Shown: positions 4,399 to 61,897 of the stretch, one piece after another
Numbering within the stretch: position 1 is the stretch's first letter
Layout of the letters: the number at the start of each line of letters is the position of its first letter
Origin: Mytilus trossulus
Taxonomy: Eukaryota
Assembly: GCF_036588685.1 (NCBI RefSeq)
Contig: NC_086378.1
Coordinates: 9,052,001 to 9,116,000, forward strand
Direction of reading: 5' to 3'
Length of the DNA stretch: 64,000 nt
The notes under the pieces: model-generated
Told to the model about the DNA's origin: nothing
Seen by the model: the letters and a program-made list of their open reading frames with translations, nothing else
The model's database searches: none
Program-made: the position numbers and the translations under genes

Positions 4399-5535
4399 CC
4401 TACAACCGATCCAAGTGCAAATCCTGAATGAATGACTTTTGAGAGTAAATGTTTTGTTGAACAAAGTACATAATTATGATTAAATCAACATTCAATATGT
4501 TAATCAAATGACGGATTGTTACATTTTGCAATCAATTTGGTTTTGATTTACAAGGTAAATGCCCTCTCGAATGCACAATTAGAAAAACCACATGCATTTG
4601 AGGAAACGAAATACTCGTTGTTGAAATTTCATATACGAGCATGAATTTGGTAAAACCATGATACTACTTTTTAGTTTTTTTTATCGTTTCCCCTTTTATA
4701 CATATTGAACTTGCGATGAAACAAAAGAGTACACACAATTCCTCACAAATTTATCTTTTTGATAACTTGCTGAACTAATATGATACCTAAAAAAAACCAA
4801 GAAAAAACCAATAATCTTTAAATAACAAATACTAACCATGTGTTTTCTATTAGGTACTTGTAGGATGAGGAATAAAGCAGATATAATTATTGTTGTTTAA
4901 ATTTATTACTCTTTTTATAATGATAAAAATATAACAGGTATAAATGATGATGATGATGAAGATGATGATGATAGTTCACCTATTGCATGAAAAGACATTG
5001 AGGTGCTGAGCTCGATTCCCGTTCAATTCCGATATTAACTGATAAGATAACCGAGAATGCGGATTCTCTCTGTGTACTCTGATGTCCTCCACAAACAAAA
5101 ACCGGGCGACTCTATATAGTCACGAGCGCTGGAAAAGAAATAAAGTGATATGGAGTTTAGAATTGTAATGTACCCATTAATATTAGTTTTTTTTGGTACA
5201 ACATGTGGTTTTTTTGTTGTTTTTTGTTTGTTTTTTTTTGGGGGGGGGGGGGGGGGGGTAATTATCAATGCTTCGAACAGGTTAAATCATTTACGACTGA
5301 CTTGGGTATCACCAGCCCAGTAGTCCACACTTCGGTGTTGACATGAATATCAATAATGTGGTAATTTTTTGATAAAATTCCTGTTAACAAAAGTTTAACT
5401 TTTTCGAAAAACTAAGGATTTTCTTTTTCCAGGCATAGATTTCCTTAGCCGTATTGGGCACACCTTTTTGGAATTGTGGATCCTCAATGCTTTTCAACTT
5501 TGTTATTGTTTGGCTCTATAAATATTTTGATATGA

Positions 5536-5579
5536 GCGTCACTGATGAGTCTTATGTAAACGAAACGCGCGTCTGACGT
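5536..5579 (+). ncRNA. Type I hammerhead ribozyme (core intact, one stem II mismatch)
   Basis: GCGUCA CUGAUGA GUCU uaugu AAAC GAAA CGCGCG UC^ UGACGU; stem I GCGUCA/UGACGU; palindromic stem III ACGCGCGU; predicted cut after 5573. Confidence 0.85.
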
Positions 5580-5836
5580 ACTAAATTATAATCCTGGTTC
5601 CTTTGGGTATCACCAGCCCAGTAGTCAACACTTCGGTGTTGACATGAATATCAATAATGTGGTAATTTTTTGATAAAATTCCTGTTAACAAAAGTTTAAC
5701 TTTTTCGAAAAACTAAGGATTTTCTTTTTCCAGGCATAGATTTCCTTAGCCGTATTGGGCACAACTTTTTGGAATTTTGGATCCTCAATGCTCTTCAACT
5801 TTGTTATTATTTGGCTCTATAAATATTTTGATATGA

Positions 5837-5880
5837 GCGTCACTGATAAGTCTTATGTAGACGAAACGCGCGTCTGGCGT
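5837..5880 (+). ncRNA. Type I hammerhead ribozyme, G8A core variant (probably inactive)
   Basis: GCGUCA CUGAUAA GUCU uaugu AGAC GAAA CGCGCG UC UGGCGU; stems fully paired, core CUGAUGA changed to CUGAUAA. Confidence 0.75.
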
Positions 5881-8278
5881 ACTAAATTATAATCCTGGTT
5901 CCTTTGATAACTATTGTATTGTTTGTTCTTATGGTGTGCAGGTTTTGGAAAGTCTTGAACACTCACAAGCATGTTTAGCCCCGTGATATTCTATATATAC
6001 CAGTCCCAATTAAAATTATTTGTTTTACACTTGAATGTACATTTATTGCACTAAACCTGTTATAATATAATTATATGGATTTTCTTGTTTACATTTACCT
6101 AGAAGTTCAGTGTTTTTATAATTGTATGTTCTTACTAAGAAACCACATTGAAGGAAGATAAAGCATTTCAAGAACTTGAAGCAAGACTTACATTCCCTAG
6201 TAGTTGTATTTAAACTAAAACAATCTTTATTTAACTCTATTGGGGTTTAAACAATTAAAAGCAGATATGAACAAACTGTAGAATCCATGATAAAGACATC
6301 AGAAGTTAACAAAAAAACTCAAAATTTGACAAACAGATGATACAATTATGTCCTCCTTTCATCCAATAAGACAACACCGGATAAGACTTATCTGCGAGTT
6401 GTCATTACATGAACAACAAGACGGTAGTCAATATATGTTTTACTTTAGGGAATCTAAGAAAACTGTTGATTTTGGTAGGGTTTGTGATGCTCACGAATTT
6501 TAAGCTTTCCGTATCAAATTTGGTAAACTGCTTTTTTTGTAAGCTTGTCTTCAACTTTTGCAATCTTAAACGTCTCATTTCAGAAGCCTTGATTTTATTT
6601 CAAGCGAAGCTGACCATAAAAGAATTTGACAATTTCGTCGTTTTGTAATAATGCAGCTCGTAACGTTATTAAGTATTTGATAATCCCTGGCTTTCGATGA
6701 TTAGATATGAGTTTTCTTGAATAAGTATAGTCTAGAAAATCTCATCCGACTAACACAGTTAATCCAGTGTATATTTATCTATTCCCTTCCGCTCTTTTAA
6801 AATGCGGTTTGAAATCTTCCAACAGCTTCTTTCCTTCCACTCTTTGACTTTTAGATAATTAAAACTTGTATGTTTTTATCAATACGTTGTTTAACTGAAT
6901 CTGAAGTTGCGGTTTCAGTGTAAACGATTCACGAGGTAAAAAGTTGTAACAAATATTTCAAAAAATCAAATTTTAATCAGTGGTTCATAAAGTTTCAAAA
7001 CATATCACGTTTAACCAATTACAAAAAAAAAACCAGGAGAGATGTTTTCCGTGTTAAAACATAACAAAAGTTAAGTGTGATTGACGAGTTTCTAAAATTA
7101 ATATTTTGCAGAAATACAATTTTACAACTTTATTGTTCTATTCCTAGTTTTTACTGACTCATCATTTGACAAGATCGACATGTATACTTCAGCTGTCAAT
7201 ATGTCATTAAAATAAAATAAATATTCGTTTATGATGAGGATCATTTTTTACCCAATATCCTTATGTTTGAAAAAAAAAACAATTATTTGTCAAAAGTGTA
7301 AAGACAAATAGTTGGATTTTGTTTAACAGTCAATTGACGTGAACCAAGTGTTGAACACCGTACTTTGATATATAATTTGTTTACTTTTACAAATTTTGAC
7401 TTGGATGGACATGTGTGTCGTTTGCACCCATTCCACGTCTTCTTGTATCTATATACCTTCATTTTTGGTTCTAATCGCATGATATGCTTGAAAATAAAAA
7501 CAAAAGCGATGTTAACAAGGTTGTGTGTTTCAACTGCTCTTGATTTATTTTGACAATACGGTGCAGTAAATAAAAAATCAAACGAAAAGGTCGGTACCTG
7601 AAAAGGTCAATTGTTAACTGTTAGTGGCGGGCCTTTAGCAGAACAAATCACAGAATTCATACGAAATAGAATAAGATCAAGATTTTTTTTTTTTAAATAA
7701 AAAAATCAATATTAAAATCAACTCTGTACTATCCTTATCATACTGATAAACAAACATTTTAAATACAAGCCTCTGCAATGCATAAAAATTAATACATTTT
7801 CAAAAATGAATTCATAAAAATGAACAATGAAATAACACTTTGTAAATTGTTTGCGTATTCAATTATCTACCTTTACCACACAGAATAAAACTTCAAATAT
7901 TTTTTTATATTTTTTTATAATACTGAGGTACTTGTTTATGACTTTGTAAAGTAATTAACGGTCAGATTGTACCATATGTGTATTTTTACAATTTATGTCT
8001 CTCCAGTGATGCTCGGAGGGGCACAGATAAAGCATATAAACATAATAGAATTACCTCGTTTTTGGATTGTGCGAAAAACCTTTGAATACAATTAAATTAT
8101 CCTGTCGGTGTTTTTCATGACTTGTTTTCTGAATAGTATCGGTATGGTGAGTTGAGTTATTTTCAATAGTTTCGTAAACAGTTTGTTCATACTACTTTTC
8201 CATTTAAGAGGAATGGTTTGGTACTTATAAAAAATAAAAAAAACGCCTCATTCTGAATATATATAAATAATTTTTAAA

Positions 8279-15845: not shown

Positions 15846-15877
15846 ACAAATATAATTGTGCTAAAATAGTTGCAGGA

Positions 15878-16015
15878 ATATGATTCAATCGACATTCAGT
15901 ATGTTAAATTGAATAAAATTATGCATAATTACATGTATCAATCAGTGTTGTTTTGATTTACTAGGTGATGAACACGAGAAATTACAATTTAAAAGACAAA
16001 ATCGATGAGAGGAAA
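15878..16015 (-). promoter_or_regulatory. Orphan copy of the conserved upstream element (no exon 1)
   Basis: tatgattcaatcgacattcagtatgttaa..catgtatcaatcagtgttgttttgatttactagg aligns with the paralog 1 upstream region 4475-4610. Confidence 0.6.
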
Positions 16016-16571
16016 CCTTTTTATTAAAAAGTTATCTCTTAAAATTATTTGGTGTTCTAATGTTTATTTTTCGACATGTACATGTATATCTATAGCATGA
16101 AAGATAGATTAAATAAAAAAAAGTAGTTGCTAAAAATCATCAAAACTCTTGTGAAACTTCTTTTTAGAAAACTTTGTGAACGTATTACAACCGGTTCTTT
16201 AAAGTTGATAAATTTTGCTGTCAATCATATCCTCTAGCGCATTGATATCCATTCGTTCCGTGAAGTCACAAATTATTCAGAGTCTACCAACTAAACCGTT
16301 TTATTGCACTCGATATTTAAATTATTTGTTTATGTTATTGTTTTAAATTTTCCCGATCGGATAGTTATTATCGAGATAATGTGGTGAAATCTGCATATCC
16401 CAAAGACTTAATCCAATTTCGCGCTGATGAAATCGATTAATAGACAAAGAATAGTACACAAAACACAACATGATTTCCTTTTGGGATGAAACAGAAAAAC
16501 TAGATATCCCATTTATGGTATCTATTACACAGCATTACAAGGGCATGTTGATAAGCAATATATTTACCATT

Positions 16572-23525: not shown

Positions 23526-24764
23526 TAAGGATACTCTTATACTTTTGATGAAGAATATATTTGTTGACATTTTACCACTTTGCAGAATTTGAAGCGAATA
23601 GTTTTATTTTATATACATATATCTCTCATATTATTCTATAATAGCCGAATAAACAATACTCATCAACCAATATTAATAGGTAAATACACCCTAAACCGTT
23701 TTGAAAACATTTTTTTTTATAAGGGTAATGTGTTGTAAGAGGCGGTATTCATAATGTAATTGGTATATTTTATTCTGTATACATTTCAACCATTAATGAC
23801 CGTTCTGATAACAGTTGTAATCCATATTCATTTGCAACACTGCATTCAAAGTGTTCGTTTTAGACATCATAAATCAACGAGTATTAGTGATTTTTTTCTG
23901 TTTTGATCATTTTATTTTATGTGCTATACTTGAAAAAACATTTAAAAATAAAATTCCTATTTGAAAAGAAAGGAGATATAATATTTTTGAGACAACTATC
24001 TACCGGAAACATGAAAGTTTACAACAGTAGTTCACCGAACAGCCTTTGATTATGATCATATGAAAATATGTCGTATATGATAATATTATTTTTCATAACA
24101 TCTTTATTTTTCCTTGACTAAGGCGTTGATTTGAGGCTAAATAACCGAGAGGAAAACAAGATAATATAGACATAACGTATAAATCTTCATCTTTAACGGT
24201 CAAAAGCCATGTCATTTCTTGGCCTTAAGTCAATCATATCGTGTGGGTTATGGAACTCCTTGAGAAGATGGACAACAATTAGTATAGGTTTAAACTGATA
24301 TTTACAGCCTCCGTCTTAAAAACTTTAATAACGGAAAATACCGTAATCACGAATAGAAAGCAGGTATAAAGTTCCAGAGAACAAATAACAGACAAAGTCT
24401 CTAGGGTCGACACATATAATTACCGAAAGTAATGTTTTTCTCATCATATTACGCCACATTATATTAATATGCCAATACACCTTGAGACAATGATCAACTC
24501 AACAGTAAAGTTCGCTGAAACTCAAACATGATACTTTGATAAAAGGCATCGTTTGCAAAATGTGTTTGCATACTCATGATCATTTATAAATACATATAAA
24601 AATGATTCAGGAAAAGGACGTATAAAACAGATATTGCCGAGGTCAATAAAATGTTGATTGTACCGGTAACTTAATCTTCTAAACTGCATAAATGTTTTTG
24701 GAAAAAGTTAAAGGTTATGTCATGAATGTGTTTCCTATCCAAATCTATTTTTTTACGTTTTAGA

Positions 24765-24986
24765 TTTTCCACAATTTCATGTGGTTTTTACTTATTATAC
24801 ATTCTGATCTACATTTACATTGTCTATCATTGCCAGACTGATTGATACATGTGATAATGAGTTATTTTATTTGGGTATTATTTAATCATAATAATGTTCC
24901 TGTCTCAACAAAATATGTACTTTAACATGTGCAGGGTCTGTCCTAGAATTGGCAGTAAGATGGATATCATCATCTCGTTGGAAGGT
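24765..24986 (+). pseudogene. Inverted remnant of a tyrosinase-like gene 5' end (upstream element plus exon 1 with dead donor)
   Basis: gtaagATG GAT ATC ATC ATC TCG TTG gaaggt (24960-24986) matches the 21-nt exon 1 with GT changed to GA. It is preceded by ccagactgattgatacatgt and catgtggttttt blocks that match the paralog upstream regions. Confidence 0.7.
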
Positions 24987-35500: not shown

Positions 35501-37564
35501 CATTGTACGGCCTTCTACAATACGAAAACAAATACTGTATAGTCAGCTAAAAAAAAATGACATGAAAATTCTGAAACAAACCAAACGAGAATACTTTAAA
35601 ACAATACAACAAGTTAGTTTATATTCTTTTTTTTTAGAAATTTAGTAAATAGAGAAGGATGCAACCTTCAGAGATCAACGTACCATGGTTCTGATTTAAC
35701 ACGCCAGACGCGCGTTCGTCTTCGTTAGACTTATTAGTGACGCTCAAATAAAAACAAATATTAAAGCAAAAAAAGCACAAACTTAAAGAGCATTGAGGAT
35801 ACAAAATTCCAATAAGTTATGCCGAAAAGCAGGCCTAAGGTAATTTATGCCAGGAATAAGAAAATTCTTCGTATGTCAAAAAATTCATAATTTGGTGAAC
35901 AGGAAATTCATAAAAATTACCATATAATTGATATTCATGTCAACATCGAAGTGCTGACTACTGTTCTGGAGTACCATCGGAGACGAAACGTTCACCAGAA
36001 GTGACATCGACCCAGTGGTGTAAATAGTTATCAAGTGTACCAGGCTTATAATTAAATACGCCGGACGCGCGTTTCGTCTACATTAGACGCATCAGTGACG
36101 CTCAGAATAAAATAGTTATAAAGACAAATAAGTACAAAGTTGAAGATCGTTGAGGATGATGAAGGATGGTCATATTTAAATCGTTTTTTGTTGTTGTATT
36201 TCTATAGAATGTGTGATGAAGTTATGAAGGTATGAAGATACACATGCAAAACATTTAAAATCAGGAACACTGGTTATTTTTCATCATGAAACTAAATGCA
36301 ATTGCTGGAAAAATTAAAAACCTCTTGACCTTATAACAATCATATTCTGTGTTAAAAGAAAATCAAGCAGCATGATATGAAATCATACAGAAGGGCTAAA
36401 TAAACTTTTGATAAACGGATAACACTTAAGCTTAAAATTTCATTCAGACATTTGTTTTTGTTAATATACAGATGTTGGAAAAAATGTGTCATGCGAAGAC
36501 CGATTATTATACGATATTGTAGCAAGCAATTTCTGGAAATACATAAATATTTTTTCCAAAAAATATTTATAGCTGCAAATAAAAGCGGGCAAAAGGAAAA
36601 ACTCTTTTTTTTTTTTTTGCCGTTTCAAGCAAAAATAATATCAAGGCAACAGTAGTAATTCCTTGTTTAAATCTTGTTATACTTAAAACAGAGAAACGTA
36701 GAGAAAATAAATAAAATTTCGGATCTCACATAGACTCCAAAAGGGATGAGATCGAGTGCGACGACATAGTATGCATCTCATGCTATGAATGAATCGCCCG
36801 TTTTTTGTATACTCGTTTAGTCATGATGAGGTTCACTTAGGGCACAAAACGGCCCAAAATATTAACTTTATCATAAAACACCAAAATTATTACATTTTGG
36901 TTTGGTAATGGATCTGTTTCAAAAGCCTTAATACTAAATAAATCAGTTATTTTCATAAAAGAACAAAATATTCTTCAAAGTAGGCATTTTTTTACATTTT
37001 GTCAAAATATGATGATTTTGTGCAATTTTCAGACCTAAAAGCTTTCAGAAAACCTGGAACAACACCTATGATCCAAATTGTTTTGTAACCGAGAGATTCG
37101 AATGTTGATATTGAATTCATCAACATAAAAAAAAATTGAATCGTGGATGGCGTCCAAGGGTAATTATGCAAAAAACAATTGAAATTATGGAAAACCTTGA
37201 CAAAAATTTACCTAAAAACCTTGACAAAAATTTACCTAAAATACAAATATGGTTTATTAATGGTTCATAGCTTCATAAATTGTGAAGGAAGTGCCATAAA
37301 AATATGTTTTTGTCTTAATATTATATCACAAGTTTTTCTATGTCAAATTTGTATTATTGTGGCCTGGTTTAAAAAAATATTAAAAATGTAGGGCCAATTT
37401 CGACCTTCCTTAACGTTCGCAATCGGTAAGAGGACACACTCGGTAAAATTACAAAACATACACCGATACTCGTAATTAGTTATCAGAGTTACTAGGATTA
37501 TAATTTGATACGCCAGACTCTTGTAATTTTACAAACAACTTACCCATGTTCTCTCGAGACCCAT
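29567..37564 (-). CDS. Tyrosinase-like secreted protein, paralog 4 (449 aa)
   Basis: Exons 37544-37564 (MGLERTW|gtaagt), 34317-34661 (RHKRR), 32746-32858 (IHTGSPQEHRGPAFFSWHR), 29567-30437 (EGYHNSVHRW...FDPIFWCHH). Total 1350 nt, in frame. Confidence 0.92.
31127..31324. repeat. Tandem 4 x ~51-bp repeat of the family D end
   Basis: atataggaagatgtggtatgagtgccaatgagacaactcttcatccaatag units starting at 31127, 31177, 31228 and 31279. Confidence 0.9.
33180..33327 (+). mobile_element. Retrozyme subfamily B fragment with hammerhead 33244-33286 (antisense in paralog 4 intron 2)
   Basis: GCGTCA CTGATGA gattttgtagac GAAA cacgcg TC TGGCGT; core intact, stems II and III weakened; B-type 3' flank. Confidence 0.75.
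35672..36160 (-). mobile_element. Retrozyme subfamily A, ~1.4 units (357-nt spacing), two degenerate hammerheads (35701-35743, 36058-36101), sense in paralog 4 intron 1
   Basis: Homologous to the 5302-5913 repeat; cores read CUAAUAA/GAA and CUGAUGC. Confidence 0.8.
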
Positions 37565-44185: not shown

Positions 44186-44344
44186 TAAGAATTGAAAGCT
44201 TCTTTTTGTAAATTTATTGGGTGGTAAAAGCGTTGACCGAAGTACATTTTGTATGAAGCGCGGAAGCGCTTCATTCTAAAAATGTACGCACGGTCAACGC
44301 TTTTACAACCCTATAAAGTTTCAAAAAGAAGTATTCAATACTTA
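44186..44344. repeat. ~160-nt imperfect palindrome/hairpin (part of a non-autonomous element)
   Basis: gtaaaagcgttgaccg..gtacatttt..tgaagcgc GGAA gcgcttca..aaaatgtac..cggtcaacgcttttac. Confidence 0.85.
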
Positions 44345-45876: not shown

Positions 45877-46757
45877 TAACCTGAAAGTAATTGCAACTGA
45901 AGATTTTTAAGTTTTAATCTTTAGCATTATAACTCAAATATACACAGAATAAAGTCCCATAAAATCTAACTTGAGAAAGACTAAAAAAATCACCATTTAA
46001 AATTCCTATGGAGATTTGCATTGAAAAGGGAGATAACTCTTGCAAAACAGGCAGAAATATCAATAAAAATTGATACAAAATTATAATTTTACCGCTTCTA
46101 TTAATCAGAATGTGTTGATTCTTGATTTTTTAGCAGTCTTTAGAGTATAACATACAACTCTAAAGGTGTTTTCGTATATTTCATCAAGCTATAATCTAGA
46201 TTTCGTAATTCATTAGTTGACCATTTATTGATTTTTTCAACATGTCAAGGTAAAGAATCTCAAATTTGATAAAAAATAATAAAGCATGTATTCTTCTTTT
46301 TGTAGTTTAAAGTTTCTTTAGATAATTAAATTGCTGAAAAAATATAATATACAGATGCAAACAGTACCAAATTTTCACATTATTTTTTCAAAATGCTGAC
46401 AAAGCTTCAAATTTGAAATTTCATTAATGAAAAATGCATGAAAGAATAAAACTACCCATAGCACTTCAATTTTGTGCATTTCATGAGCAGGATACTAAAT
46501 AATTTAATCAAATACAAACTTATAAACCCATCAAAGTGTCATACTTAACATAAATTTCAAGAAAAAAAAACAAAAAAATGACTATTTTTTGCAAGAGTTA
46601 TCTCCCCTTCCAATGTTAATTTCAATAGGAAATTAAAAATGCTGATTTTAGAGTTTTCCTGAAGTTAGATTTTATGGGACTTTTTTCTGTGTATATAAAG
46701 GGTATAATGCTATAGATTGGAACTAAAACATTTTCTGTTGCAATTAGATTGAGGTTA
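45877..46757. mobile_element. Fold-back MITE with ~170-bp TIRs (piggyBac-like ends)
   Basis: 45877-~46047 is the reverse complement of ~46585-46757 (e.g. gtcccataaaatctaactt / aagttagattttatgggac; gagataactcttgcaaaa / ttttgcaagagttatctc); ends ctaa|CCT...AGG|ttaa. Confidence 0.8.
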
Positions 46758-49700
46758 AATCTTAGTTTGACTGGAGTATCAGTATATTGAATAAACTCCA
46801 TTTTTTATTATTTTATCATACTTATCAAAACTGCAGGTTTGTAAATGGAATAAGATAGTATGCGTACACTATCCCGTCCTTGATAGTATTTTTAGTATTT
46901 ATTTAATAGATTTATGTAAGTAGTTGTTATCTAGGTTCAGAATTTCAGAAATATACCTTAAAGAACTATAATATCAAGCCAAACTTTTTATGTTATTTAG
47001 CCTCAGGTGGTGGGTGTCTCACTGACGATCATATCACACCACTTCATTTTTAAATGTGATTACAGCATTCAAAAACGCTGAGGCATTCTTAAATAAAAGG
47101 TGCAGTATTTACTCAAACACAATAGGTATGAAAGAATGCAGTTGGGTATATATATGTTAAATTTATTTGTGTACTTGATAAAAAAAAATGGGTGGTTGTG
47201 GTATGATTAAATATAAGACAATTATACAGACTTTAAACGACATTGATTTATATAGAATAATGGCATTTTTTTAAAACTGACTTCATCATCAAAAATATCA
47301 GGTGAGTCTGCAATAGCGAGATGATAGTCGAGCTGATAAATTTATTTCAAAACAAAAAACGCAATTTTTCCTTTGATTGGTAATCTGGGTGTTGTCTTTC
47401 TTTGGTTGAAAATATTTGAAATAGTTGTTAAAACTTTTCGTATGCGTACAAAACGCTGTGATTTTTGTTCTGTTCTATCAAAGAAGTCGCGTGCATTTTA
47501 TTCATAAGTTGACGTGGAGGAACATTAACACGTTACGTTGAGCACTGTACCGATATGTGACCTCATTTCCTAACATTTTCATCTACTTTTCATGATCTAA
47601 GAGTCATCAACTCATATAAACCAGTATGTCTAAAAGGAAACTAAAAAATAGTCGATAAAAGGTTACTTTACGCGCTTCAACCATGAAAAACTCATACCAA
47701 AAAGCCAGAAAAAATTAAAACAATTCAAACGATAACGTAACAGCCTACTTCATGACTAAAAAATATGTCTTTTTCTTTCTCAGAAAGTAATCTAATAGAG
47801 ATGAATTATCAAATATTAGCTCAAATGAGTGATTTATCTTTTAATTTAATTTAATTTGTGATACAGATTTACAGATAAACAGGCTACACGTAAAATCATA
47901 TAATTTAATAATAGAAAATATTTTTAACGAACACTGATTGATTATCATGATCAAAGTCCATTGTTGAAAATAGTAAAACGTATGTACCTTCCCTTCCGGC
48001 GCACGTGCAATCAGCTCCAGATTTTGGTGGGGTTCGTGTTGCGGAATCTTTTGTTTTCTATGTCTGTCTTGTGTACTGATATTTGTATGTTTGTCTTTTC
48101 TTCATTCTTAGCCATGATGTTTTCAGTTTATTTTCAAAAAATATATGAGTTTGCTCTGGTATCTTTTGCACTTCTTTTATGATAACTATAGTCAGTATTG
48201 AACTTAAAACAGTGTGATAACAAATCATAGAGAAGCATTTCATAGACTTTAAAAAAAAAAAAAAAGATAACAGTTTTGCATATTGTGCTTAAAGTTTTTT
48301 TGACAGATTTTTTCATTATTGCAAAGACCATGGAAATTGCATACCGATGATTTCATAATGTAGTTATAAGTGCTTAACTAATAAAGCACATTTATAATTA
48401 ATTATTTATTTATTTCATGGCTAAAAACATAAAAATAGGGTTTAAATTAAACGTGTTTTAATTTGGTCAAAGCATATATAAAATATAGACCACAGTTAGT
48501 AACAAAGGTTCATCTTAAATACATTTTCATTTTCTTTATTATTGATGTAAAACCAAACGGCAGACAATCAAAAAGACAAGCGTGTCGAGAAAGCACTGCA
48601 TACTCCGACACACATCTTTACATATTGTGCTAGAACATGGTGTTGCAAAACGTACTTGTAGTTTAGTTACCACCAATACTATTCGTGTGGTTTCTCTCTT
48701 CCAGGGCAGAAAAACAATAAAAAGACTACTAAAAGTGTTCGGAACACAACATAGAAAACCAGTAACACGAACTTAATATCCAAGGATTATCTCATGTACT
48801 TGGAAAGAGTAAAATTACAAAAATAATGAACTCTGGGGAAATTGCAAAACGGGTATAATCAAATGGCAAACTCAAAAGCTCCAACACATCAAACAAATAG
48901 ATAACAACTGGAAGGTGTCAAATCCTGATCCTTTTTAATTATTTTTGAGAGATAATTTTTAGAGCGATCATTTTTATATCAAAGTTGTTTTAGTTTTGTC
49001 ACTGAAAACTATACGTCTCACGGCAAGATTGTTTACATTAGTATGTAAATAATAGTTTAAGTTTTGTCTGTTCGTTACATTGACACCTTTTTTAAATAGT
49101 ACGTTGATGACGTTTCGATATAAAAACATCAAGATGCGGTATAATGGACAATGACTAAAGTTTCGTTCGATACTAAAGTACGTATAAGTCAGTATTTATA
49201 GCTCCCCGTTCGGCCTTCAATATTAAATGTCATCCCATATTGACAAGTGTTAAACAATTCAAACGAAAAAAATAACTGAACGATATCATTATTTTGTTCA
49301 GATTGTGTAGTTTCTTGCAGGATTGTTTATATAAAAGTTGTTTATAAATATATAATATTAAAAGTTAGGAGATGGTGACAGTTGTTCTTATACCTATTTC
49401 AAACCAATTGCAACTGAAGTTTTCATAAACATGTCTTGCAGGATCTCCGTATGGAATGCTTCAAGTATAAAACCCTGGTGCTATTAAACAAACTGGTAAA
49501 AGGAACAAGCTCGACTTTTAAAACGACACTCTGATTCAAAAAGCATTCTCTTAAATTCAAATTATTAGAATGCTTGATTTCTTGTTTGGCATTTGTTGCA
49601 TTTGGATATTGTGTTTGTAAAAAGAACAATTGTTATTTTCACGGCATCAGACTTAAACGCGACAGACTTCGTACAACAGTCATGTCGGCATTGTGACTTG

Positions 49701-50184
49701 TCCTACCTACGTTAGGTTCGTGACTCGTGACATCTCAGCAATATATCGAATAGCTCAAACAGGAATTTATTAATATTGTAAGTGAGACTTCGGTAAGCAT
49801 ATTGAAAGCTCTTTTCTCGATAGAAGACGTCACCTGCAACGCACGCATCATCTGCATTGCAAATTCACAGTCAGTCAAAATCTCACAACCGGCTATAAGA
49901 CAAATTTGGTTACTTGCAGTACAAAGAGGAACCTGAAGACTGAACGCATGTCATTCATTTACTTTACTATTTATAATCTAGGGAATATCCCGTGTTTTTT
50001 TTTTTATTTTTAAACCATATTTTACGTCGAAAACACATTCAGTAATACCTACAGAAGTTATGTTACGATATATTCTCTAACATATCATTTACAATTTAAA
50101 GTATCCAAATCTGATTCCTAAAGTTATCGGAACATGGAGTTAAAAAGGGTAATAAGATCGAAGTAGCATGTTTATTAACAGATC

Positions 50185-50343
50185 TAGATTACCTTAGCAG
50201 TATTTGGCACAATATTTTGGAATTTTGGGTCCCCAATGCTCTTCAACTTTGTATTTGTTTGGCTTTATAACTATTTTTATCTGAGCGTCTCTGATGAGTC
50301 GTATGTATGTATGTATGGCGTATTGAATTATATTTCTGGTACC
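50185..50343 (+). mobile_element. Retrozyme subfamily A fragment; hammerhead destroyed by (TATG)n
   Basis: gcgtct CTGATGA gtc gtatgtatgtatgta tggcgt; flanks match subfamily A. Confidence 0.75.
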
Positions 50344-51150
50344 CAGATCCACTCAGACTTTTTAAAAACAATTATTTGATATTGTATCAACGACTTCATA
50401 GTAAGGTTTTGCGTAAAGGTTATAGCCTAGAATAATCGCAGACTGAACCCATATGTATTTTAGAATTATGTTTCAAATTGATAGATTGAGACTAACGATA
50501 TGTTATGCCTTTGAACAACATATTTGGTTGAATAGAAGTGTTATTGACAGGATCCTGCACAACTTTTTTATGAATGAGGATATAGCACCAGTGGTTTATA
50601 ATTAAAGCATTCCATACGGAGATCCTGCAAGATGTAATTATGAAAATTTCAGTCGCAATTGGTTTGGTACATGTATGAGAATAAATTTTCTCAGACCTTA
50701 ATCTACGTATTTTAAACATTATATATTTATACACAACGTGCATGCAAAACAACCCTGCAAGAAACCACACTATCTGAACAAAATTATTATATCTTGCAGT
50801 TACTTTTCTCGTTTGAATTGTCATTTGTCATTATGGAATTATAGTTATTATTGAAGGCCGAACGGGGACCTATAATTGCTCACTTATACGTCTTTTAGTA
50901 TCGGATGGAACTTTTTTTAATAGCTAGTAAGAAAGAACTGGTTCCCGGAATTGGGAAGTGTCAAACATGTACTTCAGATCTAAAAAAAACCATAGAAAAT
51001 GTTTAGATTTCATACAATTCTTTTATTATCAGAATTATAAAGTAAAAAAGGGTACTACTCTGACATCTGTTATTCAGCTTTCATTTAATATCAGAATTAC
51101 TAACGGATTCTTTTTATTTTGAGAGTTGCAACCCATCGGATTTGTTATCT

Positions 51151-52422: not shown

Positions 52423-55400
52423 TTATACACTAAAAACAGATAATTGACGCGTGTAACGGTCGAATTGATCTGCAATAAACAAATTAAGAGAGGTACCATT
52501 GGGAATATCTTGAAATAAATCTTGTCGGATATTCTGTAGGTATACCACTGTTGTTGTCAGATCAGCCATTCCAGCAGCAATATCAACTGGAGCTAGAGCC
52601 ACACCTGGAGCCGCAAACGCAGATCCACTAGCCGCATCAGAAGCCACAAACGCAGAGCCACTAGCTGCACCCATTGCAGCCGATCCTCCAGGCGATGCCT
52701 CTCTAGAGATACATATACCTCTACTTTGGTTACAGATCAAGTCTGGACTATTTGAACACAGATTTTGGCATGATGGCGCAGGATCATATCGTCGAAGACG
52801 GGCATATCTGTTACTGTAACCTTCTCTATTAGTAATTGGTGGGTTTGGTCGATATCTGTAATTGTTAAATCGCATTTCACCATTTGGAGGATGAGTTGGA
52901 AAACCTAATGGATAATCTGCAGGGGCATTTGTAATACGTCTTCTAAATAATTCCCAAATATAGTCAACAAATGCATGATGACACCAGAATATTGGATCGA
53001 AAGCAGCAATGGTCCCGCTTGCCATGGTTCCATCTACCCAACGGTGTACCATGTTGTGATATCCTTCCCAAAAATATCTGCTTTGTTCTCGTCGTACAAT
53101 CTCACTATGACTTCTTCTTGATAGCACGGCCGCAATTGCATTTTTGGAAATTAATCCTCCTGGTCCGTTTATTGCGCGTGTAATTCTTGGACCAGGTAAA
53201 TTTGCAAAAAAACCTTCGGTTACTCGACCTAGCGGTGTACCAAAATATCTATTTGAAAATAAAATGGTTCTTGATTGTCTATTTCCCATCGCTTGATCTA
53301 ACGAGGAGTCCCAATACGGAGTAGTTACTCCTGGTCCATAAACAGCTTGCAATGCAGCTTCATACCTGAAAAGATACAAAGGAATTGATAGCTTAACCAT
53401 GAAAAAAAATGGGTTCATAAAAAAAAACTTTTAAGTGACAAGAATGAAAAGATTTTCAAGGTTCAAAGTTGAGTACAACAATAATATTCTAATTATTTTT
53501 TGTTAAGGAAATTTTAGAAGTAAGAAAAACATTGAAACTCAAATTAAAGGCTAATACTATATTTACTACACTTACAATTTATAATCCTACACTTATAATC
53601 CTGGTACCTTTGATAACTACTTACAACAACAGGTAAATTCTGTGCCATGAGAAGAAAGCTGACCCTCGATGTTCTCGATTACTACCTGTGTGGATGCTTG
53701 CAAGGATGTCATAGGTATTCATATCCCGACGAACTCCCTAGAAAATAAAAAGATAACCGCATGTGATCTGCCTTGGTTTGAGTTTTATTGTTTTGTTTAA
53801 ACCGGGTTTCTTTAAGTTTGTATTATATCTAATCATGAGTAATCAATTAACTTGACTGGATATTTTTTGTAAAATGTTATGGTCATATCCCGTACGTTAC
53901 AAAGTGGACAACTATAACCTATATTTGACATGGAAATAAGGTACAACTTAGACACTCAAATGGTTCATTATTAATTCCCACACATTTAGGACCGTTACAC
54001 ATATACGAGAAGATTAATAAATAAAGTTTTAAAAAGAATGATACGTAATGTGTGTTTTATCTGGTCTTCCGACGACCAGCGTAATCGTAAATATTCCAAG
54101 TTAATATGCACACACAAAAGTAAAAATTTGAACTGATGTGGTGTTTTATAGACCATTGATGTTTCAATTAAGCTACTTGCGATGTCAAACGGCCATTTGC
54201 TTGTGACGCTTATAATATGTTTCTATGAAGTATTTCTTGAATTGCTGTAGACCCTCCAGGAGTCAATTTCCGAAATCTTATTTCCGTACGATATGTTGAT
54301 TTGATATACAGACATTGATAAACAAAACTATCACATTGCAATATCAGGGGTTTTTGTTTTCAATTATTTGGACTCGAGGATCACTGAGCATCCATTAAAT
54401 ATCGGTTGAATTTCTTCCTTTAAATGTGGGTAAAATGGAAATGTATTGTCAAACAAAACAACATCAACGTGTTCATGGCGGCATACATACACCGTAGGCC
54501 AACTTTTCTTTCTCATTAACTATTCAAGATTATATAATCCTGTTCATTTGTCAATTTAATAAACATAATTGATGAAGTCCGGCATGATTTTCATAATATC
54601 AGAGTGTTCTTTTAATCATATTTTAATTGTTTTCTGTATATTGTTCTTTACCACTATTAAAATAGTTTTATGACTATAGATGCTAATGTTACAAGCAATC
54701 GGCTATACACTTTTTTCCATAACCTTTTCAATTGGTGCATTCAGCACTTCAATAATTGAATTTGAATTAGTTTTGGATTTTCATTTTTTTTTAACCTCGA
54801 GCATCAATAAAGAGACATTACAAATAGTATCGTTAATCTTGTTGAATAACAAATTGATATTCAAACTGGTTTCATTTTACGATGTATAGATTCAAACTAA
54901 AACAATACTTACATAATGGTTCTTTAACATCCGTACAGCTAGTGCGTAACGTAGAAAGTTGTTTTCGTATGGAGCTGCTCTTATTTCCCGTCTAACTGGT
55001 ACACCACCCGCCTGCCTTTTGTGTCGAGATTTACCAGCTGTTTCAGCCTCACTATTGATTTTTCTCCATAATGCCGATAAGAAATTCGAGGAACTTGTAT
55101 CGTTCAGCGTCTCTGTTGCCGGTTGCAGAAATTCTTTGAAACATGTTATATTGATCCCACTCTTAAAACAGTCTGGTTTGTTGTCCGTGGAATTTATTTG
55201 ATAGCTTATTTCTGCATCAATACTTGGAGGAAAATCCAACAACAACACAGTCATAAACAGACCGACCTTTAAAATAATATATCATTATAACATTATCATT
55301 TACGATGTTATATAGCGAATTTATTATACAACAATCATGATAATACAATTCCAGTTGAAAAGATGAAAATACAAACGACTGCTTTACCACTGAAAACTTA

Positions 55401-57236
55401 AACACATACAAAATGTATTATGAGAATAACTATGACGTCTCTACGTTTTAATTACCGAAATAAAAGTATATGCTGTCAATTATTGAAATATTAATTATTG
55501 CAGGGATTGTGGTTGATTTTCATGTGATTTACCATGTTTCTTCTGTTACCTATTCTAACATTTTTTTAACTGAGTTTTATTGTGGGGTTTAATGTCTGTT
55601 GGTTTTTTTTTCAATTTGGCTTGAGGTTTAGGGAAAGAGTTGAGATCTAACAAAACATAGTTAACACTTCCGCATTTTTGCGTTTGTCGTCCTTATGCAG
55701 ACGTTTGGTCTGTGATTTGTCGGTTCTATCCGATTTAAGCTCGTAAAAGTTTTCATTAGTTCTTGATTTTCATTATGGGTGATACATGCGAGAGACGCTT
55801 GTCCTTTCAAAACATCCGATTTTTCTACGTTTGAAACCCATGGAAAAAGTAAAATCACAAAAATACTGAAAATCAATAAGAAAGTCCATAATCACATGGC
55901 AAAATCAAATAACAAAACGCATCAAAAACGAATGGACAAGAACTGTCATATTCCTGACATACACTTTCAAGGCATTCTACATATGAAGACCATGGGATAC
56001 AGATTAAAATAATTCAGGAGTTCTACGTTTGAAAACCATGGGATACCATAAAAGCATCACGTCTTTCTAAGTATGATGACCATAGGATACCCTGTAAAAG
56101 CATCCTGTCTTTCTACGTTAGATGTCCATTGGAGACACTTTCAGAGCATCTAGTCGTTTTACGTTTGAAGACAAAGGGATACCCTTCAAATCATCCAGTA
56201 TTTCTACGTATGAAGACCATGTAATACCCTGTCATAGAATCTGGTCTTTCTACGTTTGATGACCATAGGATACGTTGTCAGAGCATACAGTCTTTCTGCG
56301 TATAAAGTCCATATGATACCCTGTCAAAACATCCGATTTCTACGTTTGAAGAGTTCAAGACCATGAAAAACTCTGTCAAAGCATCCAGTCTTTCTACGTT
56401 TGAAGACCATGAATTTCCCAGTATGTTATCCCTTGTTTTTTGTATTCAAAAGCGAATTACGAATTTTTAAATATCGGTAAAATGCGTAAGCACCTTCTGT
56501 GTAATTCTATCATAGATCGAGATTTTTTTTGTATTTATTTGTGTCATGGATAAATAAACTCATTTTAGATACCAGGATGAAGATTTGTATTTACGCCAGA
56601 CGCACGTTTCGTCTACAAAAGACTCATCAGTGACGTTCGAATCTAACAAGTTTAAAAGGCCAAATAATATGCGAAGTTGAAGAGCATTGCTTAATATAAA
56701 TTAATTTATGTAGTATAAGCTTATTAATTGAAATTTGGAAATAAAAAAACAAATAACCGTGATATAAATCAAATAAAGAAATCAAGAATAAAAACAAAAC
56801 AAAAAGAAAACGGGTTGCTTATTATCATGAAAAGATTCCTTATAATTGCATATCTTCCCAAAAGTTCACAACATCTTCAAGAGTATTATCACGAAAATGT
56901 CGACTTCGACTGGTTGTGCTACGATTATAGAAACATTGATGCCCTCCTGCTCCTTATGTATTTTAATTGTTCTCGTTATTGGATTGCCATCCTCTATTAT
57001 TCTTTTGTTATACAGTTTGATCGTTACTGCATATCGTGCACATATTATGGCAATAAATAACTTGAAAGAAATAAGAAATATTTCAACGTCCAACATGATT
57101 ATTTTTCATATATGTAAACAAAAAATTGGGTTATAAAAACGAGCAAATGTATTGATTTCAAAGTAAAATATAAAAGTATGTCATTTTTTTTCTCAAAATC
57201 AAATAATATACTAACCAATGTGCTGCAGGTATGCAT
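52423..57236 (-). CDS. Tyrosinase-like secreted protein, paralog 5 (476 aa)
   Basis: Exons 57216-57236 (MHTCSTL|gttagt), 54913-55266 (RHKR), 53625-53737 (IHTGSNREHRGSAFFSWHR), 52423-53365 (EGYHNMVHRW...FDPIFWCHH). Total 1431 nt, in frame. Confidence 0.93.
55790..56412. repeat. Degenerate ~43-bp minisatellite interrupted by a family C fragment
   Basis: Recurring tttctacgtttgaagaccatgggataccctgtcaaagcatccagtc, about 11 units; family C insert at ~55843-55960. Confidence 0.85.
56553..56690 (-). mobile_element. Retrozyme subfamily B fragment in paralog 5 intron 1
   Basis: B-type flank (aataaactcat...gataccagga) plus hammerhead and the aagttgaagagcattg block. Confidence 0.8.
56593..56636 (-). ncRNA. 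Type I hammerhead ribozyme, fully intact
   Basis: ACGUCA CUGAUGA GUCU uuugu AGAC GAAA CGUGCG UC^ UGGCGU: stem I 6/6 pairs, stem II 4/4, canonical core, GUC triplet; predicted cut between 56599 and 56598. Confidence 0.88.
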
Positions 57237-60200: not shown

Positions 60201-61078
60201 CCTTCTCCTAAAGTTGTTTTTACCTTGCATTGCTTAAATATAATTTTTTAACTCGTGGTTTTAATTTTTGAAACTTTTTTAAGCACCCTAAATACATATA
60301 ACTTATAAAACCCACTTCAAATAGAAAAGAAAACAAAAAAACAAAGGAACAGCTTAAGTTTGCGTCATCTCACAGTGAGGCCTTCATCAAGGAGCTAAAA
60401 CTCTTATCTCACCGCAAGTTTAAAATAGCCTCTTGTACCGGTTAGAGCAGAATTCATTGCATTGAAATATAAGATTTCTGCACAGACACGGACGTGTAAA
60501 TGCAACTCCATTTAAAGGAGCGTGTATGTTAAAATGACTTATGTTTGGGGTAAATTGTAAAAGGTTTAGCTAGCTATAAAACCAGGTGCAATTCACCATT
60601 TTCTACATTAGAAAATGCCTGTACCAAGTCATGAATATGACAGTTGTTATCCATTCGTTTGATGTGTTTGGACTTTTGATTTTGCCTTTTGATTTTGGAT
60701 TTTCCTTTTTGAATTTTCCTCGGAGTTCAGTATTTTTGTGTTTTTACTTTTTGTTATAAATTTATAAAAAGAAAGTCAATGTATTATTATAAATAATATG
60801 CAAAATTTTGCATATTGCATATCAACTTAGCTTCAAAACTTGACATTTAATGAATCCCATGTTATTCTGAACATTTTGGTTACTTACATGACTCCGTATC
60901 TTTTAGAAAAGGTGACGGTGGATTTACAAATAAGTGTTTTGCAAATTAAAGTGTCCAGTGTTTATGCACCGAAAGAAATTATTTGAAATATTCTACATCC
61001 ACAATTCTGACCTTTGAATAGTTCGGCGAAAATTAATTCTTAAAGAATTCATCGTAAAATGAGTCGCATTAACATTAA

Positions 61079-61246
61079 TTGGTTATCAAAAGTACCAGGA
61101 TTATAATTTTATACGCCAAACGCGCGTTTCGGATACATAAGACTCATCAGTGACGCTCAGATCGAAATAGTTAAAAAGCCAAATAAATACAAAGTTGAAG
61201 AGCATTGAGGATCCAAAATTCCAAAAAGTTGTGCCAAATACGGCTA
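61079..61246 (-). mobile_element. Retrozyme subfamily A fragment, hammerhead 61113-61156 with broken stem II
   Basis: gcgtca CTGATGA gtct tatgt atcc GAAA cgcgcg TT tggcgt plus A-type flank. Confidence 0.78.
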
Positions 61247-61325
61247 ATAAATAAATTGATAAAACGTGTCGAATTTGAATAACAAACTTTAAGTCTAAAT
61301 TTTAGTAAATATAACGCCATAACGC

Positions 61326-61897
61326 AATGGCGCCTTCGTAGCAAAGAGTTCTAATTAAGTTGTTCATCACTAGCCATATGTGAGTTCGAACCCAACATGT
61401 GGCAGATGCATTCGATTTTTAATTGACTAGGATTGCATTTCTTCCTTCCAAAGGTCGGTGGTTCCCCAAAGACATTCCGGCTTGCTCAACCAATAAAACG
61501 AAACGCCACGATAAAGCCAGTAGTGGTGAAAATAAAGTCATCATAGATACCAGAATAAAAAAATTGTGTTTTCGCAAAACGAGCGTTTCGTCTACAAAAG
61601 ACTCATCAGTGTCGATTGAGTCCAAAAAAGTTTATAAGGCAAAATAAAGTACGAAGTTAAAAAGTAATCAGGATCGATGTTCCTAAAAGTTTGGCCAGAT
61701 ACACCTATGTAATCTATTCCTGATGAAGAAAAGCATAAGTATTCCAACAATTCAAATTTTTGTAAACATTTAGTTCAAATTTATGGCCATATTAATGATA
61801 ATTCATGAAAAACAGATGTGCTAATTACTGGGCTAGACAGAATAAGAATACGTTGTTGTAAATGAACTTATCATGAAAGTGGTGATAAACCCCAACA
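61326..61897 (+). mobile_element. tRNA-derived SINE (split by the retrozyme)
   Basis: B-box GTTCGAACC at 61384-61392; central ggtcggtggtt...ccggcttgctcaaccaataaaac..gccacgat domain resembling mollusc SINE cores; tail tgaaagtggtgataaac resumes at 61874. Confidence 0.6.
61532..61873 (-). mobile_element. Retrozyme subfamily B near-full monomer (~342 nt) inserted in a SINE; hammerhead 61572-61615
   Basis: CTGATGA gtct tttgt agac GAAA core with decayed stem I; terminal redundancy (ataaagtcatca / atgaacttatca); flanked by TGAAA direct repeats. Confidence 0.75.

Follow-up and report, generated by a model that had tools for sequence, protein, structure and literature searches.

An intact hammerhead motif in a tyrosinase intron of Mytilus trossulus, carried by a truncated copy of an abundant retrozyme-like repeat

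Results and Discussion

Analysis of a 64,000-nucleotide stretch of the Mytilus trossulus genome (referred to here as the window) identified a real hammerhead ribozyme motif in a tyrosinase intron, on the strand that is transcribed. The motif is part of a 5'-truncated copy of an abundant repeat and is very probably a neutral passenger of the gene, one that would cut slowly in cis and would mostly be outrun by splicing. It is a truncated member of a kind of element that has already been described. Coordinates of the motif, its carrier, the host gene and related repeat copies on the same strand are given in Table 1.

Table 1. Features of the hammerhead locus and its host gene, in window coordinates
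Feature	Coordinates	Strand	Evidence or remarks
Type I hammerhead ribozyme motif	56593..56636	minus	Sequence and Rfam RF00163
Solo 139-bp fragment of a 354-368-bp hammerhead repeat of non-LTR retrozyme type, 5'-truncated	56551..56689	minus	Genome matches, array-unit alignment
Likely first exon of paralog 5, coding part	57216..57236	minus	ATG and 6 codons, phase-0 donor; X8 and X5 both contain the splice joint
Host intron, 1,949 nt, GT..AG	55267..57215	minus	Joint 55264-57214 that leaves out 1,949, present in two runs from two studies
Exon 2, end of signal-peptide-like stretch and N-terminal region	54913..55266	minus	Splice joints, frame
Exon 3, first copper-site histidine region	53625..53737	minus	Splice joints, frame
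Exon 4, with the tyrosinase domain, the second copper-site region and the stop	52423..53365	minus	Pfam PF00264 (E 2.4e-22), joints
Sense-oriented copy of the hammerhead repeat, 1.3 units long, within paralog 4 intron 1	35677..36157	minus	Both hammerheads with core lesions
Two further repeat copies, 4.5-5 kb upstream	61076..61834	minus	Both with broken stems, upstream of the likely transcription start

The hammerhead motif

Read on the minus strand, the motif runs from the 5' arm of stem I (ACGUCA) through the CUGAUGA core, stem II (GUCU/AGAC), GAA, ACGUGCGU and C17 to the 3' arm of stem I (UGGCGU). All three helices are present, with helix I open: stem I has 6 bp, one of them U-G, stem II has 4 bp and a 5-nt loop, and stem III has 2 bp and a tetraloop. 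The sequence elements that define the core of a type I hammerhead (CUGANGA, GAAA and an NUH triplet) are found here as CUGAUGA, GAAA and GUC. Cleavage is predicted after GUC, at 56599|56598, which is the position named in the preliminary description of this DNA. That description also called stem I, stem II, the core and GUC canonical, as can be read directly from the sequence, and the Rfam model RF00163 (Hammerhead_1) aligns over its full length at exactly 56593-56636 (32.9 bits, E-value 1.4e-6). The gathering score of this model is 34. A scan of the 64-kb window at the Rfam gathering thresholds returned no matches because 32.9 bits falls just below this value, and the motif appears by E-value only. 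A reversed control pattern has no matches genome-wide, and the motif is therefore not a chance occurrence.

Ten copies of the repeat in the window extend into the hammerhead core. In nine of the ten, the core is altered, stem I or stem II is disrupted, or there is a deletion, leaving the present motif as the only one without a lesion, so that its earlier characterisation as the best-preserved hammerhead of the window is upheld. Another early statement, that the helix III variant ACGUGCGU can still pair with itself in a dimer, holds with one correction. In the dimer the pairing does form, with two G-U wobbles; in the monomer, helix III consists of 2 bp closed by a GUGC tetraloop, and the variant base, which sits inside this loop, is therefore unpaired.

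The host gene

The minus-strand reading frame at 52423-53430 matches the Pfam Tyrosinase domain (PF00264, E-value 2.4e-22), and the four exons of Table 1 join into an open frame of 476 amino acids. All three introns are joined at GT..AG in contigs of runs X8 (guessed to be RNA) and X5 (kind not on record), which come from two studies and from animals that may or may not carry the insertion. The GT..AG joint of the 1,949-nt intron spans the hammerhead, and the motif is therefore intronic and in sense orientation, with its cut site 617 nt past the donor and 1,332 nt ahead of the acceptor. Thus the placement on the transcribed strand made in the preliminary description is confirmed by the minus-strand domain match together with the splice joints that bracket 56593..56636. 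Its placement inside the gene's first intron agrees with the joint seen in two runs, the rank of the intron being probable: a block upstream of the ATG exon is conserved among the paralogs and promoter-like, and because it sits directly upstream of that exon, the 1,949-nt intron is probably intron 1, although an upstream untranslated exon is possible. In four paralogs this block ends in a word that we take to be initiator-like.

The host gene is the fifth of five tyrosinase paralogs in the window, the other four lying to its left and being 59-89% identical to it by exon. The five are arranged in tandem on the minus strand (1131-57236) with an identical exon layout, and paralog 1 runs off the left edge. 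The conserved block, about 200 bp long and located upstream of each ATG exon, is likely a shared promoter. Two extra copies of it, one of them inverted, occur without an ATG exon at 15850-16050 (minus) and 24720-24960 (plus) and are possibly leftover promoter duplications. The C-terminal tail of paralog 5 (52440-52720, minus) is an Ala/Gly/Ser-rich region of low complexity that follows a Cys-containing stretch. The intron that carries the hammerhead also contains a degenerate tandem array with a 46-bp unit (55967-56410, 8.4 copies, 70% matches), which adjoins the hammerhead fragment; the four runs mapped cover positions 56140-56533 little or not at all. A 36-bp antisense end fragment of the hammerhead repeat lies at 53593-53628, at the splice donor of exon 3 of paralog 5, where it overlaps the first bases of the intron.

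The carrier repeat and its family

The 139-bp fragment has 40 other scored matches in the genome, 83-90% identical over the same stretch of about 140 bp, and the sequences flanking the fragment itself are unique. The repeat occurs in arrays with a period of 354-355 bp and in pairs spaced about 368 bp apart, and has two stem II loop variants. When 41 loci were mapped on the array unit, most were found to end 40-95 nt after the start of the core and to begin at variable points. A shared 3' end combined with variable 5' ends is the pattern of 5'-truncated insertions, and the 139-bp fragment fits it. No target-site duplication was found at 56551..56689, where the longest word shared by the flanks is 7 AT-rich bases; according to PMC7229834, such duplications are not always present in mussel retrozymes. 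The fragment holds a single hammerhead, the full monomer between two hammerheads being absent, and this copy therefore cannot release a circle by itself. It is a fragment derived from the family and not a working element.

The family has the organisation by which non-LTR retrozymes are recognised, namely a type I hammerhead in tandem repeats of 150-450 bp. It is low in GC (0.30 for the region), dispersed and of high copy number: a family 16-mer has 23,083 exact copies in the genome. In the runs mapped, contigs from other copies of the repeat pile up on the hammerhead site. The retrozymes described from Mytilus galloprovincialis likewise carry type I hammerheads in low-GC repeats of 350-390 bp, form two related subfamilies and number in the thousands of copies (PMC7229834). 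Judging from unit size, low GC, the two subfamilies and hammerhead type, the repeat is likely the published mussel non-LTR retrozyme family, from whose elements 56551..56689 differs in being a solo 139-bp piece that yields neither monomer nor circle alone.

Several other repeats were observed in the course of the analysis. A head-to-tail dimer of the hammerhead repeat (5302-5915, plus strand, period 301, units 97% alike) lies upstream of paralog 1; one of its hammerheads has a core change, and the other is core-intact with one stem II mismatch and might keep weak activity. The formation of a cis dimer between the hammerhead of paralog 5 and the two copies located upstream, at 61.1 and 61.6 kb, was considered and rejected, as the stems of those copies are broken and they lie upstream of the likely start. 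Elsewhere in the genome, one array unit (L028, about position 1762, plus strand) also carries, on its opposite strand, another word resembling a hammerhead (CUGAUGA, a stem and GAAAC), which may be chance or an antisense motif of the 355-bp unit. Dozens of intact hammerheads occur in a long array of the 355-bp unit at 269-286 kb of contig C1 of the assembly (G000), which is a likely source of circular RNA. Pairs of inverted repeats of about 80% identity, resembling non-autonomous DNA transposons, are present in the window at 44186-44344, 45877-46757 and 49157-50914.

Abundance, decay and conservation

Intact hammerheads were counted with a pattern of 35 positions comprising the core, stem II, the helix III base and the cut triplet. 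This pattern has 21,106 matches in the genome (none for the reversed control), compared with about 5,000 copies given in PMC7229834 for a different assembly and by a different search. Evenly spread, the matches would amount to 1.04 per 64 kb, with many of them in fact lying within arrays; the first 100 matches listed fall into 27 separate places over 2.95 Mb (counted by eye). With about one intact match per 64 kb on average, one in the window is therefore expected. The exact 42-mer of the present copy occurs 70 times in the genome and the common form of it 1,528 times. The view that this copy is special does not survive these counts.

In the ACGUGCGU variant of those 70 copies, a CpG within the helix III loop has undergone a C-to-T change. 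The mirror change at the same CpG, G-to-A, which would give C-A mismatches in the dimer, is found in 65 copies (p=0.73 for 70 versus 65), and a transversion at the same base as the C-to-T change in 22 (p=5e-7). The variant looks like CpG decay with no preference for dimer-compatible forms, and selection for such forms was rejected on the comparison of 70 with 65 copies. Nor does the G-U-compatible base appear to be tuned, as had been suggested: the change that spoils the dimer is equally common, and pairing of the variant is weaker than that of the common form by about 2 kcal/mol.

Relative to the majority of 25 related copies, a biased set drawn from 26 loci chosen for similarity, the 139-bp fragment has 15 differences. 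Two fall among the 44 positions inside the hammerhead, both preserving the pairing of the monomer, and 13 among the 95 positions outside it (Fisher p=0.14 with this similarity-chosen comparison set). This is a trend, and no evidence of selection. An intact sense copy is not present in any of the other four paralogs; both sense hammerheads in intron 1 of paralog 4 are dead and the paralog 5 copy is intact, numbers that are too small to test. A search of the genome assembly gave no match to the intron flank that would represent another haplotype or a close paralog, and DNA runs X2 and X3 provided no bridging contig and no empty-site joint among the contigs and joints listed.

Cleavage in competition with splicing

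A cloned mussel monomer is reported to cleave itself without a partner, at about 0.1 per min when assayed at 37 C with 6 mM Mg, dimers being required in amphibians and not in most invertebrates; the mussel motifs are described as being without most of the usual contact nucleotides between loop 1 and loop 2 (PMC7229834). Because the cloned mussel monomer cuts alone, a trans partner is probably unneeded, contrary to the proposal that cutting of the tyrosinase intron may require one. If transcription proceeds at 1-4 kb per min (the lower value being our assumption and the upper one a rate for mammals given in PMC10919898), transcribing the 1,332 nt between cut site and acceptor takes 0.3-1.3 min. 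By hand arithmetic, 3-12% of transcripts would then be cut, at 0.1 per min, ahead of the synthesis of the acceptor. The share would be nearly half if splicing lagged by five more minutes. Mussel cells are cooler and lower in Mg, and the rate within them is likely below the in vitro rate. A rate of 0.1 per min likely loses the race to splicing 1.3 kb downstream, and slow intronic ribozymes have been found to leave splicing unaffected (Fong 2009, cited through PMC10919898). Of the earlier idea that the pre-mRNA is cut co-transcriptionally and the gene thereby regulated, what can be kept is that the retrozyme origin and sense orientation would allow cutting at some rate; regulation of the gene is not supported, none of the other four paralogs having an intact sense copy.

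Alternative explanations

The evidence allows other readings to be weighed against that of a passenger. If the gene model were wrong or the motif a product of chance, there would be no hammerhead in the pre-mRNA. The Rfam score lies 1.1 bits under the gathering cut-off, and the minimum-energy folds predicted for this copy differ from the hammerhead fold, which nearest-neighbour folding at 37 C places 5.4-9.6 kcal/mol above the ensemble in eight sequence contexts. However, three family copies (five contexts each) have the hammerhead fold 5.8-9.7 kcal/mol above the ensemble in the same model, and since they fold equally badly, folding energies are uninformative on activity. Together with the E-value over the full model, the empty reversed controls and the splice joints that bracket the site in two studies, this leaves hardly any room for such an error. 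Considerably less improbable, though still unlikely, is that the ribozyme acts in cis as a leaky attenuator: the monomer would cut a measurable share of transcripts before exons 1 and 2 are spliced and so lower tyrosinase mRNA, either as a side effect or as a mildly selected trait comparable to CPEB3. Every core and stem position is intact, the family monomer is reported to be active alone (PMC7229834), Cpeb3 provides a precedent (PMC10919898), and Xenopus introns are described as depleted of retrozymes (10.64898/2026.07.22.740005). Against this, the half-life would be about 7 min, compared with the 0.3-1.3 min needed to reach the acceptor, whereas CPEB3 is reported to combine a half-life of 2-3 min with 9.9 kb (PMC10919898); furthermore, the in vitro rate was taken at a temperature and Mg concentration under which it probably exceeds that in mussel cells. 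The probability of stem I pairing, computed with flanks at 37 C, is 0.00-0.14 here versus 0.33-0.97 in two copies of the same subfamily, with a third family copy equally low, and the motif is not conserved among the paralogs.

Regulation in trans is a still more doubtful proposition. Here abundant retrozyme RNA, for which the most plausible candidate is a linear monomer's 3' end left by cleavage, would use the 8-nt palindrome and the 6-bp stem I to pair with the intron, would cut it, and would couple tyrosinase expression to retrozyme levels. Pairing through the palindrome, as envisaged in the preliminary description, is energetically possible according to the model, which assigns the trans complex -20 kcal/mol at 37 C and the enzyme strand -7 when it folds alone. 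The same calculation gives -22 kcal/mol on the common form, whose exact copies, at least 1,528 in number, would compete with this site in addition to retrozyme RNA itself, and dimer-compatible variants are not in excess. Trans pairing would not single out this site, since better sites outcompete it. Trans cutting of a host-gene target by a schistosome satellite hammerhead is said to have been reported in 1998. For satellites of crickets and schistosomes, cleavage in trans or by double hammerheads has been proposed (PMC2837043), and mussel gonad and mantle are described as rich in retrozyme RNA; on the other hand, the mussel monomer needs no partner, most mussel retrozyme RNA is stated to be circular, and its authors infer that the hammerhead of the circle is blocked in vivo (PMC7229834). 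The proposal can be widened such that each cleaved linear retrozyme 3' end is a hammerhead acting in trans and recognising its target over 8 + 6 bp, the pool of which would cut sense intronic remnants in hundreds to thousands of mussel genes, tyrosinase included, and set their output tissue by tissue. We consider this wider version very improbable as well.

We thus favour the neutral passenger, for which the following history may be envisaged. Mussel retrozyme arrays are reported to be transcribed, cut by their hammerheads and circularised (PMC7229834). The copy in the tyrosinase intron would have been inserted by target-primed reverse transcription with Penelope-like machinery and would later have decayed by point changes, among them a transition at one CpG of the helix III loop, with the core surviving by chance. 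Any cleavage would take place in cis as a monomer, with the 2-bp helix III and tetraloop, and the cost to the gene would be a minor share of transcripts at most, or the ribozyme would act on the intron after its excision. In Xenopus, 42-44% of retrozyme copies are reported to be intronic, and the depletion of retrozymes from introns described in that preprint (10.64898/2026.07.22.740005) indicates some cost to genic copies, and therefore counts against the passenger reading. Also against it are the fully intact core amid decayed flanks (2/44 versus 13/95) and the upper kinetic bound, with nearly half of transcripts cut if splicing lags, which is not negligible.

Relation to known systems and significance

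The motif shares with Rfam Hammerhead_1 (RF00163) the core and the palindromic helix III, and differs in scoring below the curated value. Being in sense orientation in an intron of an expressed gene, it has a property expected of a domesticated intronic ribozyme, and can be compared with those that are known. The HDV-like ribozyme of CPEB3, the one endogenous intronic case that we met in the literature searched, is also a sense intronic self-cleaver able to compete with co-transcriptional splicing; it is described as single-copy, conserved in mammals, matched in half-life to 9.9 kb and tested in vivo, whereas the hammerhead in the tyrosinase gene is a repeat copy, predicted to be slower, at 1.3 kb from the acceptor (PMC10919898). 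The amniote hammerheads of RECK and C10orf118 are likewise intronic and have been proposed to be repeat-derived, but are reported to be conserved across mammals or amniotes (PMC3088659); the present copy is absent from the paralogs. Hammerheads of newt, axolotl and Penelope-like elements also have a palindromic helix III that permits a double hammerhead. Their helix III is described as 1 bp or absent and their activity as dimer-dependent, in contrast to the 2 bp and tetraloop found here, a type reported to be active as a monomer in invertebrates (PMC7229834; PMC7761336). No mussel host gene regulated by a retrozyme copy was met in titles and abstracts, in a search mostly outside subscription papers.

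As it stands, the finding matters little, the locus adding a further decayed copy to an element family already described. If cleavage in trans by retrozyme RNA were true in vivo, it would constitute a natural ribozyme-based regulatory network in an animal, and nothing marks out this locus within it. The locus does offer a convenient test case for asking whether the thousands of intact hammerheads in animal introns cost or tune the expression of their hosts.
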